From a virus (Duplodnaviria > Heunggongvirae > Uroviricota > Caudoviricetes), in the IMG/VR virus record IMGVR_UViG_2713896774_000002: a stretch of 6,175 nt of DNA; one strand, given 5' to 3'. Shown here one piece after another: positions 1 through 6,175 of this stretch. The translations under genes and the position numbers were made by a program. The stretch's first letter is position 1; each line of letters opens with the position of its first letter. A model generated the notes under the pieces. That model saw only the letters and a program-made list of their open reading frames with translations, was not told the origin of the DNA and did no database searches.

Positions 1-903
1 CAGACCGTCAATAAGAAACTGGAAGACCAGAGTGCGGCAATTCAGCAGATACAGAAGGTTCAGGTTGATACAAATAATAACCTGAACAGCATGTGGGCTG
101 TGAAGCTGCAGCAGATGCAGGACGGACGCCTTTATATCGCGGGTATTGGTGCCGGTATTGAGAACACCCCTGACGGCATGCAGAGTCAGGTGCTGCTGGC
201 GGCGGACAGGATTGCGATGGTTAATCCTGCGAATGGCAACACAAAACCGATGTTTGTTGGTCAGGGCGATCAGATATTCATGAACGACGTGTTCCTGAAA
301 CGCCTGACGGCCCCCACCATTACCAGCGGTGGAAATCCACCGGCATTTTCCCTGACACCGGACGGAAAGCTGACTGCTAAAAATGCGGATATCAGTGGCA
401 GTGTGAATGCGAACTCCGGGACGCTCAACAACGTCACGATTAATGAGAACTGTCAGATTAAGGGGAAACTGTCAGCCAATCAGATTGAAGGCGATATTGT
501 CAAAACAGTGGGTAAGGCTTTCCCGCGGGACTCCCGGGCACCGGAGCGGTGGCCATCAGGGACCATTACCGTCAGGATTTATGACGATCAGCCTTTTGAC
601 AGGCAAATTGTTATTCCAGCGGTGGCATTCTGCGGCGCTAAACATGAGCGGGAGAATAACGATATTTATTCGTCATGCCGCCTGATAGTGAAGAAAAATG
701 GTGCTGAAATTTATAACCGTACCGCGCTGGATAATACGCTGATTTACAGTGGTGTTATTGATATGCCAGCTGGTCACGGCCACATGACGCTGGAGTTTTC
801 GGTGTCAGCATGGCTGGTAAATGACTGGTATCCCACAGCAAGTATCAGCGATTTGCTGGTTGTGGTGATGAAGAAAGCCACCGCAGGCATCAGTATCAGC
901 TGA
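1..903 (+). CDS. J: Tail-tip host-specificity protein J, C-terminal portion (5' partial; reading frame is open from base 1, stop TGA at 901-903)
   Basis: Frame 1 is open from position 1 through 903, so the ORF-track start at 91 is an internal Met. The translation (…[103 protein letters not shown]…) matches my recollection of the C-terminal part of lambda gpJ. It sits directly upstream of lom and stf, as in lambda. Confidence 0.85.
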
Positions 904-922
904 ATTTTATAACCCATATACG

Positions 923-946
923 GGCGCCAGAAATGGCGCCTTTTTT
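923..946 (+). terminator. Rho-independent terminator downstream of J
   Basis: Perfect 7-bp GC-rich stem GGCGCCA (923-929) pairing with TGGCGCC (934-940), closed by a GAAA tetraloop, followed immediately by TTTTTT (941-946). Located 20 nt after the J stop codon. Confidence 0.6.
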
Positions 947-960
947 ATTGCAGAAAAGCG

Positions 961-965
961 AGAGG
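961..965 (+). promoter_or_regulatory. Shine-Dalgarno sequence for lom (AGAGG, 5-nt spacer to ATG 971)
   Basis: Purine-rich AGAGG lies 5 nt upstream of the lom ATG. Confidence 0.5.
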
Positions 966-970
966 TAATT

Positions 971-1042
971 ATGCGTAAAGTTTGTGCAGCCATTTTGTCC
1001 GCAGCCATCTGTCTGGCCGTATCCGGTGCGCCTGCATGGGCG
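971..1042 (+). other. Sec signal peptide of Lom (24 aa, predicted cleavage after AWA)
   Basis: Positively charged N-terminus (MRK), hydrophobic core ([14 protein letters not shown]) and an A-W-A signal peptidase I site, all read directly from the translation. Confidence 0.6.
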
Positions 1043-1570
1043 TCTGAGCAGCAGGCCACACTGAGCGCAGGGTATCTTCATGCCCGTACGAACGCTCCCG
1101 GCAGCGATGATCTGAACGGGATTAACGTGAAATACCGTTATGAGTTTACGGACACGCTGGGGCTGATTACGTCATTCAGTTATGCCAACGCTGAAGATGA
1201 GCAAAAAACGCATTACAGCGATACCCGCTGGCATGAAGATTCCGTGCGTAACCGCTGGTTCAGCGTGATGGCGGGGCCGTCTGTGCGCGTGAATGAATGG
1301 TTCAGCGCGTATGCGATGGCGGGTATGGCTTACAGCCGTGTTTCGACTTTCTCCGGAGATTATATCCGCGTAACTGACAACAAGGGGAAAACGCACGATG
1401 TGCTGACCGGAAGTGATGACGGTCGCCACAGCAACACGTCTCTGGCGTGGGGAGCTGGCGTGCAGTTTAACCCGACCGAATCCGTGGCCGTTGACGTCGC
1501 TTATGAAGGCTCCGGCAGCGGTGACTGGCGTACCAACAGTTTCATCGTGGGTGTCGGTTATAAATTCTGA
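971..1570 (+). CDS. lom: Lom outer-membrane protein (Ail/Lom/OmpX/PagC family 8-stranded beta-barrel), 199 aa
   Basis: 199-aa ORF with an N-terminal signal peptide ([24 protein letters not shown]|SEQ, AxA cleavage motif) and a C-terminal aromatic residue (…VGVGYKF) typical of OM beta-barrels. Sequence and position between J and stf match lambda lom as I recall it. Alternating hydrophobic/aromatic beta-strand patterns run through the protein. Confidence 0.9.
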
Positions 1571-1596
1571 TTAGCCAGGTAACACAGTGTTATGAC

Positions 1597-1623
1597 AGCC
1601 CGCCGGTTCAGGCGGGCTTTTTT
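1597..1623 (+). terminator. Rho-independent terminator downstream of lom
   Basis: 8-bp perfect stem AGCCCGCC (1597-1604) / GGCGGGCT (1611-1618), 6-nt loop GGTTCA, followed by a T-run (1618-1623). Located 27 nt after the lom stop. Confidence 0.7.
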
Positions 1624-1634
1624 GTGGGGTGAAT

Positions 1635-4600
1635 ATGGCAGTAAAGATTTCAGGTGTACTGAAAGACGGCACAGGAAAACCGGTACAGAACTGCACAATC
1701 CAGCTGAAAGCAAAACGTAACAGCACCACGGTGGTGGTGAACACGCTGGCCTCAGAAAATCCGGATGAAGCCGGGCGTTACAGTATGGACGTTGAGTACG
1801 GTCAGTACAGCGTTATTCTGTTGGTGGAAGGATTCCCGCCGTCACATGCCGGGACCATCACCGTGTATGAAGATTCCCGACCCGGTACGCTGAATGATTT
1901 TCTCGGTGCCATGACGGAGGATGATGCCCGTCCGGAGGCACTGCGCCGTTTTGAGCTGATGGTGGAAGAGGTGGCGCGTAACGCGTCCGCGGTGGCACAG
2001 AACACGGCAGCCGCGAAGAAGTCAGCCGGCGATGCCGGCACATCAGCCCGTGAGGCGGCAACCCATGCGACTGATGCTGCAGGCTCAGCACGTGCAGCCA
2101 GCACATCAGCCGGGCAGGCCGCGACGTCGGCTCAGTCAGCGTCTTCCAGCGCAGGAACGGCATCAACAAAGGCTACTGAAGCATCAAAAAGTGCTGCCGC
2201 TGCAGAGTCCTCAAAAAGCGCGGCAGCTACCAGTGCCGGTGCGGCGAAAACGTCAGAAACGAATGCGGCAGCGTCACAAAAATCTGCAGCCACTTCTGCA
2301 TCCGCAGCGACCACAAAGGCGTCAGAAGCTGCCACCTCAGCCCGGGATGCGGCGGCCTCAAAAGAGGCAGCGAAATCATCAGAAACGAACGCATCATCAA
2401 GCGCCAGTAGTGCCGCTTCCTCGGCAACGGCGGCAGGAAATTCCGCGAAGGCGGCAAAGACGTCCGAGACGAACGCCAGGTCTTCTGAAACGGCAGCGGG
2501 ACAGAGTGCCTCAGCTGCGGCAGGCTCAAAAACAGCGGCAGCATCATCTGCCAGTGCCGCGTCAACAAGTGCCGGGCAGGCCTCAGCCAGTGCCACCGCT
2601 GCCGGAAAGTCGGCAGAAAGTGCCGCCTCGTCTGCTTCAACAGCCACAACGAAGGCTGGCGAAGCCACTGAACAGGCCAGTGCAGCAGCGAGGTCTGCTT
2701 CCGCAGCGAAGACATCCGAGACGAACGCGAAAGCGTCGGAAACCAGCGCAGAATCCTCAAAAACGGCTGCCGCATCGTCCGCCAGTTCGGCGGCGTCATC
2801 GGCATCATCGGCGTCAGCTTCAAAAGATGAGGCGACCAGACAGGCGTCAGCAGCGAAGGGCAGCGCCACGACAGCATCCACGAAGGCGACAGAGGCAGCT
2901 GGCAGTGCGACGGCGGCAGCACAGAGCAAAAGTACGGCGGAATCCGCGGCAACGCGCGCCGAGACAGCAGCTAAACGGGCAGAGGATATTGCATCCGCCG
3001 TGGCGCTTGAGGATGCAAGTACGACGAAAAAGGGGATAGTACAGCTCAGCAGTGCGACCAACAGTACGTCTGAAACGCTGGCGGCAACGCCAAAGGCAGT
3101 AAAATCAGCCTATGACAATGCAGAGAAACGTCTGCAGAAAGACCAGAACGGCGCTGATATACCCGATAAGGGACGCTTCCTGAACAACATTAACGCGGTC
3201 AGTAAAACAGACTTTGCTGATAAGCGTGGTATGCGTTATGTGCGGGTTAACGCTCCTGCAGGTGCAACATCTGGAAAATATTACCCTGTTGTTGTTATGC
3301 GTTCTGCTGGCTCAGTAAGCGAACTGGCATCAAGGGTCATTATCACCACGGCACCGCGAACCGCAGGCGATCCGATGAATAACTGCGAGTTTAACGGATT
3401 TGTTATGCCTGGTGGCTGGACTGACAGGGGGCGTTATGCTTATGGAATGTTCTGGCAATATCAAAACAATGAACGAGCCATCCACTCAATAATGATGAGT
3501 AATAAGGGCGATGATTTGCGCTCTGTGTTCTATGTTGATGGCGCTGCTTTCCCTGTTTTTGCGTTTATCGAAGATGGCCTGTCAATATCCGCACCTGGTG
3601 CTGATCTCGTTGTTAATGATACGACCTATAAGTTTGGGGCAACAAATCCAGCGACTGAATGTATCGCGGCGGACGTTATCCTTGATTTTAAGAGTGGGCG
3701 TGGTTTTTATGAGTCTCATTCGTTAATCGTTAACGATAACTTGTCGTGCAAAAAACTTTTTGCCACAGACGAAATTGTAGCGCGTGGTGGTAATCAGATT
3801 CGAATGATAGGTGGGGAGTATGGTGCATTATGGCGTAATGATGGCGCTAAAACTTACCTGCTGCTTACCAATCAAGGTGATGTTTATGGTGGCTGGAATA
3901 CATTAAGACCGTTTGCTATTGATAACGCAACCGGCGAACTGGTTATTGGAACCAAACTGTCCGCAAGTCTGAACGGTAATGCATTAACAGCAACAAAGCT
4001 GCAAACGCCAAGACTGGTTTCTGGTGTTGAGTTTGATGGTTCCAAAGATATTACTTTAACCGCCGCGCATGTGGCTGCTTTTGCCAGAAGGGCAACGGAT
4101 ACATATGCCGATGCGGATGGTGGCGTTCCCTGGAATGCCGAATCAGGCGCTTACAATGTCACCCGCTCTGGCAACAGCTATATTCTGGTTAACTTCTATA
4201 CCGGAGTCGGAAGTTGCCGGACATTGCAGATGAAGGCGCATTACAGAAATGGAGGTCTGTTCTACCGTTCCTCAAGAGATGGCTATGGTTTTGAGGAAGA
4301 CTGGGCAGAAGTTTATACCTCGAAAAATCTTCCACCAGAAAGCTACCCAGTCGGTGCACCAATCCCGTGGCCATCAGATACCGTTCCGTCTGGTTATGCC
4401 CTGATGCAGGGGCAGACTTTTGACAAATCTGCTTACCCGAAACTTGCAGCCGCTTATCCGTCAGGCGTGATCCCTGATATGCGTGGCTGGACGATTAAGG
4501 GCAAGCCCGCCAGTGATCGAGCCGTATTGTCTCAGGAACAGGACGGCATTAAATCACACACCCACAGCGCCAGCGTATCCAGTACGGATTTGGGGACGAA

Positions 4601-4985
4601 AACCACATCGTCGTTTGATTACGGCACTAAATCCACGAATAACACTGGTGCGCATACCCATAGTGTTAGCGGTACGGCTGCTTCAGCCGGTGCACATACC
4701 CATTCGATGACATTTGTTTCAGGTGGTTCCAGTGGTGCTCCGGGAAGTGGATCACCTGATTATTCTAAATACAGTGTTAACACTTCTTCTGCAGGCGCTC
4801 ATACGCACTCTGTATCGGGTACTGCTGCAAGCGCAGGTGCACACGCACATACTGTCGGTATTGGTGCTCATACGCACTCCGTTGCGATTGGTTCACATGG
4901 ACATACCATCACCGTTAACGCTGCTGGTAACGCGGAAAACACCGTCAAAAACATCGCATTTAACTATATTGTGAGGCTTGCATAA
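1635..4985 (+). CDS. stf: Side tail fibre protein Stf (about 1116 aa from ATG 1635; ORF track begins at in-frame GTG 1629)
   Basis: The N-terminus [26 protein letters not shown]… matches my recollection of the lambda/Rac Stf N-terminus. A long Ala/Ser/Thr-rich shaft follows, then a conserved phage tail-fibre repeat ([36 protein letters not shown]), then a C-terminal region with His-x-His repeats. The gene is followed by an overlapping tfa, the canonical stf-tfa pair. The ATG at 1635 is preferred over GTG 1629 because of the conserved MAVK N-terminus and a GGGG/GGTG SD-like tract at 1626-1632. Confidence 0.9.
2244..2728 (+). repeat. Four dispersed copies of a 24-bp direct repeat encoding AK(T/S)SETNA within the Ala/Ser-rich shaft of stf (copies at 2244-2267, 2370-2393, 2454-2477, 2705-2728)
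   Basis: Near-identical DNA units read directly: GCGAAAACGTCAGAAACGAATGCG, GCGAAATCATCAGAAACGAACGCA, GCAAAGACGTCCGAGACGAACGCC and GCGAAGACATCCGAGACGAACGCG, each encoding A-K-T/S-S-E-T-N-A. They are embedded in a low-complexity A/S/T-rich segment spanning roughly 1975-3000. Confidence 0.7.
3027..3131 (+). other. Conserved phage tail-fibre repeat / collar-like motif within Stf
   Basis: The peptide [36 protein letters not shown] resembles the short repeat motif recurrent in many phage tail fibres (recalled, not searched). Confidence 0.5.
4557..4904 (+). other. Cluster of seven His-x-His motifs in the Stf C-terminal tip (putative metal-binding needle-like domain)
   Basis: Translation shows SHTHS, GAHTHS, GAHTHS, GAHTHS, GAHAHT, GAHTHS and SHGHT between nt 4557 and 4904, mostly in the unit (S/T)AGAHTHS and interspersed with Gly/Ser-rich linkers. 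Confidence 0.6.
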
Positions 4986-5560
4986 TGGCATTCAGAATGA
5001 GTGAACAACCACGGACCATAAAAATTTATAATCTGCTGGCCGGAACTAATGAATTTATTGGTGAAGGTGACGCATATATTCCGCCTCATACAGGTCTGCC
5101 AGCAAACAGTACCGATATTGCACCGCCAGATATTCCGGCTGGCTTTGTGGCTGTTTTCAACAGTGATGAGGCATCGTGGCATCTCGTTGAAGATCATCGG
5201 GGAAAAACCGTCTATGACGTGGCTTCCGGCGACGCGTTATTTATTTCTGAACTTGGCTCGTTACCGGAAAATGTCACCTGGTTATCGCCGGAAGGGGAAT
5301 ATCAGAAGTGGAACGGCACAGCCTGGGTGAAGGATACGGAAGCAGAAAAACTGTTCCGGATCCGGGAGGCGGAAGAAACAAAAAACAACCTGATGCAGGT
5401 AGCCAGTGAGCATATTGCGCCGCTTCAGGATGCTGCAGATCTGGAAATCGCAACGGAGGAAGAAATCTCGTTGCTGGAAGCATGGAAAAAGTATCGGGTA
5501 TTGCTGAACCGTGTTGATACGTCAACTGCACAGGATATTGAATGGCCAGCACTGCCGTAG
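4985..5560 (+). CDS. tfa: Tail fibre assembly protein Tfa (191 aa)
   Basis: ATG 4985 overlaps the stf stop (TAATG) and is preceded by TGAGG (4972-4976). The C-terminal region (…[29 protein letters not shown]) matches the conserved C-terminus of lambda-type Tfa chaperones as I recall it. Its position immediately after stf fits. Confidence 0.9.
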
Positions 5561-5657
5561 GGTAAAACATATAAATTCTATAATTAGATGTATCTTTCCA
5601 TTTACGGCAAGGAAGGGGGCTTGGAAGACGTAAAGCATCTCACACCGAGATTATTTT

Positions 5658-6175
5658 TTATATGTCAGGTGTCTGAAGTTTTGCTTTGGCTCTTAAAATG
5701 GTTTGCCGCGAGGTTTTGAATTCCCGGGCAATGGCACTTATACTTACACCTGACTTAATTCGTTCGAATACCGCCTGTTTCTGTTCTTCATTTAACACAG
5801 GTGGTCGACCAAAACGTTTCCCTGCGCCGCGGGCTCTTACTATCCCGGAATGAGTGCGTTCAAGTAAAAGGTCTCGTTCAAATTCAGCGACTGCTGAAAT
5901 TACTTGCATCATCATTTTTCCTGTTGGACTGGTCAGGTCAATGCCCCCCAATGCTAAGCAATGCACTCTGATACCTGTTTCGGTCAGTTGTTCCACTGTT
6001 TTCCTGATATCCATTGCATTACAACCAAGGCGATCCAGTTTTGTCACAATCAATTGATCACCACATTTCAGGCGAGCAAGCAACCGGTTAAAACCAGGAC
6101 GCTCACTGGTTGCTGGGTAATGACTCCAACTTATTGATAGTGTTTTATGTTCAGATAATGCCCGATGACTTTGTC
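5658..6175 (-). CDS. pin: Serine recombinase, DNA-invertase (Pin/Hin/Gin-like), C-terminal about 170 aa; N-terminus lies beyond the window end
   Basis: The minus-strand frame is open from 6175 down to the stop at 5658-5660; the ORF-track 'M' at 6083 is a TTG and not the real start. The translation contains resolvase/invertase hallmarks: …[33 protein letters not shown]…[23 protein letters not shown]…GRPP… plus a C-terminal helix-turn-helix ([21 protein letters not shown]). Convergent with tfa, as in Rac-type prophages (stf-tfa-pin). Confidence 0.85.

Follow-up and report, generated by a model that had tools for sequence, protein, structure and literature searches.

A probable metal-binding needle, homologous to the T4 gp37 tip, in the C-terminal region of a side tail fibre from a lambdoid prophage

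The window, by which we mean the whole 6175-nucleotide stretch analysed from the virus record IMGVR_UViG_2713896774_000002 (Caudoviricetes), carries, according to its open reading frame (ORF) list and Pfam matches, the end of J followed by lom, stf and tfa and then a pin-like invertase gene interrupted by IS1. The J segment (91–903, plus strand, as are the following three genes) is the 3′ end of the central tail fibre gene with the receptor-binding C-terminal domain (Pfam Ig_GpJ_C and Phage_Tail_Tip). It is followed by lom (971–1570), which encodes an Ail/Lom outer-membrane protein (Pfam Ail_Lom, E = 2.7e-126), by the side tail fibre gene stf (1629–4985), an intact ORF of 1118 amino acids (aa) with a GTG start, and by tfa (4985–5560), which encodes a tail fibre assembly chaperone (Pfam Caudo_TAP, E = 3e-43). 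Positions 1–6115 show 97–99% DNA identity to E. coli loci annotated as stfR/“prophage tail fiber”, stfR/tfaR/pinR or tfaQ/pinQ, and the J–lom–stf–tfa order is also annotated in E. coli genomes. The window is the tail module of a lambdoid (Rac/Qin-type) E. coli prophage. Prophages of this type are frequently defective, the invertase gene beside these genes is disrupted, and the Stf fibre may or may not be produced.

Pfam assigns to Stf the domain PF08400 at aa 3–136 (E = 9.2e-72), Gp34_trimer at aa 665–764, Collar (PF07484) at aa 909–956 and a Phage_fiber repeat, and the protein matches PHROG 295, “tail fiber protein” (E = 5.5e-135). Its N-terminus also matches the Ur-lambda Stf collar structure 9E7M/9MGH (E = 1e-51), which together with PF08400 provides the N-terminal tail-attachment domain of a lambdoid side tail fibre; the gene order typical of such fibres is likewise present. 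We therefore identify Stf as a side tail fibre from the N-terminal structural match, the J–lom–stf–tfa order and the DNA identity to the stfR/tfaR and tfaQ loci. Long low-complexity stretches occur throughout the fibre.

The initial annotation had counted seven His-x-His (HxH) motifs, five of them HTH, one HAH and one HGH, over about 115 residues at nucleotides 4557–4904. The translated protein contains exactly these seven and none elsewhere, spanning 116 residues (aa 977–1092) when counted from the codon that opens motif 1 to the one that closes motif 7, with coordinates identical to those given. On the plus strand, motifs 1 to 4 are HTH, starting at aa 977 (nt 4557–4565), aa 1009 (nt 4653–4661), aa 1023 (nt 4695–4703) and aa 1058 (nt 4800–4808), and are followed by HAH at aa 1072 (nt 4842–4850), HTH at aa 1081 (nt 4869–4877) and HGH at aa 1090 (nt 4896–4904). 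The repeated (S/T)AGAHTHS context described earlier is looser than claimed, one actual context being IGSHGHT, and the flanks are rich in Gly, Ser, Ala and Thr. A 21-aa protein segment is duplicated within the region, and motifs 5–7 are spaced with a 9-aa periodicity. The Pfam “Phage tail fibre repeat” (PF03335, GxHxH), known from work on T-even phages as the “His box”, scores 24.5 bits against Stf (cut-off, 20), with its best match at aa 1004–1017, spanning motif 2; it is a short motif family with no structural domain definition and, alone, is uninformative on needle geometry.

When Stf was compared with the PDB by phmmer, aa 904–1118 matched residues 27–242 of the chain in 2XGF, the “long tail fiber protein P37”, which is the receptor-binding tip of T4 gp37 (E = 5.9e-88). 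The last 215 aa align end to end with this structure at about 70% identity, so that the similarity covers the whole crystallised tip. In a three-way alignment, all 14 motif His of Stf fall in the same columns as those of T4 gp37 and of lambda Stf, the latter being 78% identical over the C-terminal 216 aa. The Stf motifs starting at 977, 1009, 1023, 1058, 1072, 1081 and 1090 correspond to T4 His 883/885, 915/917, 929/931, 966/968, 980/982, 989/991 and 998/1000, respectively. The steps between successive motifs are also alike in the two proteins, namely +32, +14, a tip-containing step of 35 in Stf and 37 in T4, +14, +9 and +9. The proposal of a gp37-like metal-binding needle is supported by this match, by the shared His and by the spacings, and the alignment with the gp37 C-terminal domain flatly contradicts the absence of detectable similarity that had been named as grounds for abandoning it. 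The equal number of motifs, from which a similar needle had been argued, reflects common descent rather than coincidence.

Subdomain limits were transferred to Stf from those of T4 gp37 (PMC6957217), and all lie on the plus strand. The first part of the collar or knob domain (aa 904–975, nt 4338–4553), which contains the Pfam Collar match and corresponds to T4 gp37 D10 (811–881) in the 2XGF alignment, is 83% identical to T4. The descending half of the needle stem (aa 976–1025, nt 4554–4703), with motifs 1–3, aligns without gaps to T4 gp37 882–931 at 72% identity, and the ascending half (aa 1052–1101, nt 4782–4931), with motifs 4–7, aligns equally gaplessly to 960–1009 at 68% identity. The C-terminal strand back to the collar (aa 1102–1118, nt 4932–4982) matches T4 gp37 1010–1026 in 16 of 17 residues (94%) and is identical in lambda Stf. 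Thus, as in gp37, a collar stands ahead of the needle, and the last residues of the chain lead back into it. Between the stem halves, and between motifs 3 and 4, lies the tip (head) subdomain (aa 1026–1051, nt 4704–4781), the presumed receptor-binding surface, which is a hypervariable cassette with only 21% identity to T4 932–959, compared with 68–94% elsewhere.

The same pattern was observed among relatives, which we sampled from 80 viral-contig loci and reduced to 46 distinct C-terminal sequences. All seven motifs, and therefore all 14 His, are retained in 44 of the 46; the two exceptions are a truncated fragment of 12 aa and one sequence (L043) in which motif 3 was lost through a deletion. 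Variation is instead concentrated at aa 1026–1051, where per-column identity falls to 0.3–0.5 and 24 distinct segments were found among 49 aligned sequences. At the DNA level, identity to relatives is 56–74% in the tip versus 94–100% in the collar and the C-terminal end.

A gene for a gp38/Tfa-type chaperone adjoins stf directly. The tfa ATG and the stf stop codon overlap by one base (TAATG), and Tfa matches PHROG 105, “tail fiber assembly”, as well as T4 gp38 (30% identity, E = 3e-18). By homology with gp38, Tfa would be the chaperone required for the folding and trimerisation of the Stf C-terminal region.

Very probably (roughly 0.93 in our estimate), nucleotides 4557–4904 encode the metal-binding stem of a receptor-binding needle in Stf that is a homologue of T4 gp37 D10 and D11. 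What the sequence itself shows is the homology, the column-by-column conservation of the His, the variable tip and the neighbouring chaperone gene, whereas the trimer geometry, metal occupancy and metal identity of Stf, and the role of its tip in receptor binding, would follow from the T4 crystal structure by homology. Like gp37, Stf would be a homotrimer. Past the collar, each chain would run outward through motifs 1–3, make the distal tip at aa 1026–1051 and return through motifs 4–7 into the collar, which would give the trimer the shape of a slender antiparallel beta needle with six strands. Seven levels would follow one another along it, and at each the corresponding HxH motifs of the three chains would direct six imidazoles toward the threefold axis, where they would hold one metal ion in octahedral coordination. 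The T4 needle coordinates seven iron atoms along its length (PMC6957217; PMC11705849), so that the number of ions given in the initial annotation is correct, and by analogy the metal in Stf would be iron, with seven ions per fibre. These ions would replace a hydrophobic core and lock the register of the trimer. The conserved stem would then serve as a scaffold, and the hypervariable segment between motifs 3 and 4 would form the receptor-binding surface; the corresponding tip of T4 binds both OmpC and LPS, and that of Ur-lambda binds OmpC (PMC12617516 for Ur-lambda). A single-sequence AlphaFold2 model of the last 216 aa as a monomer had a mean pLDDT of only 35.6 (pTM, 0.17), and the placement of the Stf His along the axis therefore rests on homology and not on that model.

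Could the HxH run instead be a contingency locus, in which repeated DNA units slip or recombine at appreciable rates and thereby change the number of motifs or the reading frame, switching the fibre on or off or altering its length? The duplicated 21-aa segment and the 9-aa periodicity of motifs 5–7 would fit such a locus, and the extra unit of lambda Stf together with the loss of motif 3 in L043 implies that gain and loss of units have indeed occurred in evolution. However, the repeats, which had been described as nearly identical in DNA and as possibly allowing slippage, are not nearly identical: the seven 30-nt units share only 9/30 to 21/30 positions pairwise (30–70%), and the longest exact direct repeat within 4500–4985 is the 14-nt GCTCATACGCACTC at 4797 and 4866. 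A repeat search returned 20-nt copies with 70–90% identity, and Tandem Repeats Finder found no tandem repeat in the HxH region. Slippage between the repeats is thus unsupported. Furthermore, the duplicated segment is identical in only 40 of 63 nucleotides, and such near-saturated synonymous differences oppose recent homogenisation or frequent slippage. The retention of seven motifs in nearly all of the distinct relatives and in T4 also speaks against a locus of this kind, which we regard as very improbable.

An alternative to which we likewise give only a very slight chance is that the His are surface-exposed and form a metal- or ligand-binding surface for receptor recognition, or a pH sensor, with no axial structural metal site. 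The region is certainly His-rich, with 13 of the 20 His of Stf in its last 140 aa, and the axial placement of these His in Stf is predicted from homology. On the other hand, the His positions are invariant, whereas the variability falls between motifs 3 and 4, in the segment that would set receptor specificity. The equivalent His coordinate axial iron in the 70%-identical T4 structure, and T4 H929 and H931, which correspond to H1023 and H1025 of Stf in the alignment, are essential, as substitution of either by Ala is lethal, an effect ascribed to folding and structure (PMC6957217).

That the motif count is a functionless compositional accident of a low-complexity, Gly/Ser/Ala/His-rich tail, as the flanks and the low-complexity stretches noted above might suggest, is refuted by shuffling (whole-protein shuffles gave a mean of 0.34 HxH, with 0 of 20,000 reaching seven, and shuffles of the last 140 aa, which contain six of the motifs, gave a mean of 1.1, with 16 of 100,000 reaching six), by the 2XGF match and by the conservation of every His, column by column, from prophages to T4, and its probability is close to nil. 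An invertible tail-fibre segment of the Mu G, P1 C or e14 P type was also rejected, since the invertase is truncated by IS1 (its ORF lacks resolvase profile positions 1–54 and abuts an IS1 end), since we found in the window neither a gix/hix-like core above chance nor a suitable inverted repeat, and since its ORF list contains no second tfa or second fibre C-terminus.

The tip of Stf is too diverged from those of T4 and lambda for receptor specificity to be transferred from them. Its low identity to T4 implies that the specificity is probably different. We put forward, tentatively and as somewhat doubtful, the idea that the His-box and stem sequences flanking the tip (4704–4781) may anchor the recombination of receptor cassettes among E. 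coli prophages, lambda-like phages and T-even phages, and that the common allele found here would bind a different receptor from T4 and lambda, with their OmpC and LPS sites. The passage of PMC3157838 that describes Tetart 1996 links the His boxes of T4 to duplication endpoints.

The practical consequence is that the structure of the T4 gp37 tip permits a residue-level annotation of Stf, as a collar and metal-stapled stem scaffold with a swappable tip at aa 1026–1051 and an accompanying chaperone gene. Such an annotation can be used in host-range prediction and in the engineering of chimeric lambda or T4 fibres, and the needle is relevant to estimates of the iron carried in phage particles. 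The finding itself is correct but ordinary and adds no new biology.

Among known fibres, the T4 short tail fibre gp12 has the collar domain in common with Stf, and a short tail fibre chain (9CUY) matches aa 900–959 in the phmmer comparison (E = 1.5e-8). In gp12, an axial metal (zinc) is held by one HxH motif from each of three chains. It has a single metal site and a different head domain and is without a seven-site needle such as the one predicted for Stf.

Ur-lambda Stf/Tfa and the Rac StfR/TfaR and Qin StfQ/TfaQ pairs of E. coli K-12 lie in the same J–lom–stf–tfa order as the genes of the window. Lambda Stf, however, has eight HxH motifs, owing to one extra 9-aa unit (GIGAHQHPVV), and a tip that is longer than, and unrelated to, that of the window’s Stf, which for its part is set against the lambda and K-12 homologues by its 1118 aa and long Ala/Ser-rich shaft. 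The Stf of Ur-lambda shares the gp37 tip structure with T4 and binds OmpC (PMC12617516), and the HxH motifs are iron-binding in T4 and conserved in lambda (PMC11705849). Published work (PMC12617516; PMC9659904; PMC11705849) thus already covers the homology of lambda Stf to gp37, the needle with its seven irons and HxH conservation in lambda-type fibres.

T4 gp37 itself shares with Stf the succession of collar, descending stem, tip, ascending stem and C-terminal strand, the seven equivalently placed HxH motifs and a chaperone gene directly downstream, although the Stf tip is two residues shorter. The remainder of the two proteins is unrelated in layout, as Stf is a PF08400-anchored lambdoid side fibre and gp37 is the distal half-fibre of a myovirus, joined to gp36. 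Unlike gp37, Stf is the product of a temperate, siphovirus-type prophage.

The side tail fibre protein Stf (1118 aa; 1629–4985, + strand, in the ORF map) contains exactly seven His-x-His (HxH) motifs in translation, all within its final 142 residues: HTH at aa 977, 1009, 1023, 1058 and 1081, HAH at aa 1072, and HGH at aa 1090. The initial annotation had placed seven such motifs at 4557–4904, and the translated stf gives the same count and coordinates. This number is far above chance. Shuffles of the whole of Stf gave a mean of 0.34 HxH and reached seven in 0 of 20,000 cases, and when the His-rich last 140 aa alone were shuffled, 16 of 100,000 shuffles reached the six motifs present there.

Could these motifs belong to a metal needle of the T4 gp37 type, as was initially proposed? 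A PDB sequence search with Stf aa 758–1118 retrieved 2XGF, "long tail fiber protein P37", the structure of the T4 gp37 receptor-binding tip (E = 5.9e-88), and the alignment, which pairs Stf aa 904 through its final residue with chain residues 27–242 at 70% identity, supports the proposal. When Stf, T4 gp37 and lambda Stf were aligned, Stf was 70% identical to T4 gp37 and 78% identical to lambda Stf; all 14 of the 14 motif His residues fell in invariant columns, and a C-terminal stretch of 16 letters was identical in the three proteins. Furthermore, the T4 tip carries its HxH motifs at 883, 915, 929, 966, 980, 989 and 998, a spacing of +32, +14, +37, +14, +9 and +9 compared with +32, +14, +35, +14, +9 and +9 in Stf, so that the two differ across the tip hairpin only.

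The likeness is unevenly distributed. The T4 subdomain limits (D10 collar, 811–881 and 1010–1026; stem, 882–931 and 960–1009; tip, 932–959; PMC6957217) were used to compute identities to T4 for each part of Stf, all on the + strand: 83% for the first part of the collar (4338–4553), 72% for the descending stem (4554–4703), 21% for the tip (4704–4781), 68% for the ascending stem (4782–4931) and 94% for the C-terminal strand (4932–4982). In the tip, where the alignment itself is uncertain, the T4 contact positions G938, G940, G942, S947 and Y949 were kept, whereas I933M, N937S, G943S and K945D were changed and Y953 fell in a gap.

The T4 needle holds seven iron atoms, whose ligands are the histidines of the HxH motifs from all three chains; the substitution of H929 or H931 with Ala is lethal, and binding to LPS and OmpC is through residues of the tip (PMC6957217; PMC11705849). 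T4 H929 and H931 correspond to Stf H1023 and H1025. Because both stem halves align gaplessly to the crystal structure at 70% identity, we infer that the Stf histidines line one axis. Homology to T4 suggests that, in an Stf trimer, every chain would descend through motifs 1–3, build the distal tip and return through motifs 4–7. Each motif, supplied by three chains, would coordinate one axial metal ion octahedrally, and the seven ions per fibre would staple a needle too thin for a hydrophobic core. A single-sequence prediction of the C-terminal monomer had a pLDDT of 35.6 and was unusable.

Among 80 related loci found in a scan of viral contigs, 75 had a complete C-terminal reading frame, giving 46 distinct C-terminal sequences, and 44 of these retained all seven motifs. 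The exceptions were L043, which has lost motif 3 by deletion (six motifs), and L022, a truncated 12-aa fragment. The His columns were otherwise invariant, and column identity fell to 0.3–0.5 in the tip (aa 1026–1051), which took 24 distinct forms in several unrelated length classes among 49 aligned sequences. Relatives with other tips shared 94–100% of the window's DNA sequence over the collar, over the C-terminal end and over tfa, and 82–90% over the stems; the tip was effectively unalignable. This pattern is that of a conserved scaffold surrounding a cassette-like specificity segment. Compared with loci L031–L084, the diversity was centred on the tip (4704–4781), while the collar, the C-terminal strand and tfa kept their 94–100% DNA identity, a picture suggestive of cassette exchange or of strong diversifying selection acting on the tip.

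The HxH run is unlikely to be a slippage or contingency locus. Units have been gained or lost over evolutionary time (lambda has eight motifs and L043 six), and T-even phages are known to undergo exchanges close to conserved motifs of their adhesins (PMC3157838), but the count of seven is stable and the DNA identity among the units is low. The repeats had been described as near-identical in DNA, which did not hold: the seven 30-nt units are only 30–70% identical to one another, the longest exact direct repeat within 4500–4985 is 14 nt, and a duplicated 21-aa block matches at 40 of 63 nt. A repeat search of the HxH region returned only 20-nt copies of 70–90% identity, and Tandem Repeats Finder reported no tandem repeat there. 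A surface-exposed, receptor-binding role for the histidines is contradicted by their invariance beside a hypervariable tip, and the T4 structure also speaks against it. A compositional accident is ruled out by the shuffles and the column-for-column conservation.

The stf product is a lambdoid side tail fibre of the Rac/Qin type and an ordinary representative of the lambdoid Stf family. On the + strand, it is preceded by the 3' end of J (91–903; Pfam Ig_GpJ_C and Phage_Tail_Tip) and lom (971–1570; Ail_Lom, E = 2.7e-126) and followed by tfa (4985–5560; Caudo_TAP, E = 3e-43). Prophage loci on E. coli chromosomes match the whole window at 97–99% identity; their genes are annotated as gpJ, Ail-Lom, stfR ("prophage tail fiber N-terminal domain-containing protein"), tfaQ or tfaR, and pinQ or pinR. 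Of the 5426 complete E. coli genomes, 786 carry at least 80% of the window. Stf aa 3–96 match the collar of the Ur-lambda side tail fibre, whose structure has been solved (9E7M/9MGH, E = 1e-51).

By Pfam and PDB sequence comparison, Stf is apparently a mosaic whose segments match fibres of unrelated phages: this Ur-lambda collar, Mu tail fibre S (aa 443–523 and ~814–909; 5YVQ/8JU3), the T4 gp34 trimerisation domain (aa 665–764; Gp34_trimer, 4UXE/5NXF) and the T4 gp37 tip (aa 904–1118; 2XGF). The shaft (~2030–3060) is rich in Ala, Ser, Thr and Lys, contains a short 9-nt tandem repeat (2791–2816) and is overlapped by long ORFs of other reading frames, one of 335 aa on the + strand and two of 309 and 241 aa on the − strand, which look like composition artefacts of repetitive GC-rich coding sequence rather than genes.

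Tfa shares 30% identity with gp38, the T4 chaperone, and presumably folds and trimerises the Stf C-terminal region. Its ATG shares one base with the stf stop TAA (TAATG, 4983–4987), which suggests translational coupling of fibre and chaperone. Within tfa, Rfam RF02111 "IS009" matches at full model length (5328–5526, +; 221.7 bits against a gathering score of 117; E = 3.5e-55); the match may reflect either a genuine RNA or an Rfam family derived from conserved coding sequence of tfa.

Downstream, the ORF map and Pfam scan place a remnant of a pin-like serine invertase (5658–6083, −) that retains only resolvase profile positions 55–144, plus HTH_7. The final 60 nt of the window (6116–6175) match the IS1 terminal sequence, and divergence from intact pinQ begins exactly at this boundary (6115/6116); the N-terminal part, which in serine recombinases includes the catalytic serine, was therefore removed by IS1. 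Searches of the window for a gix/hix-like crossover site and for a flanking inverted repeat found neither.

The finding of a gp37-type needle in Stf is correct and already known, and the structural role of HxH motifs has been recognised since 2010. A "T4- and lambda-based RBP family" spanning the last ~215 residues has been described (PMC9659904), and the lambda Stf/T4 gp37 homology goes back, by the citations in PMC12617516, to Montag 1989 and Hendrix and Duda 1992. Judged by sequence, Stf has all the testable defining features of a gp37-type tip: similarity to 2XGF over its full length, seven equivalent HxH motifs, a collar preceding the needle, a variable tip insertion, a C-terminal return strand and an adjoining chaperone gene. 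Lambda Stf differs in having an eighth HxH motif, through one added 9-aa unit, compared with the seven in the Stf studied here.
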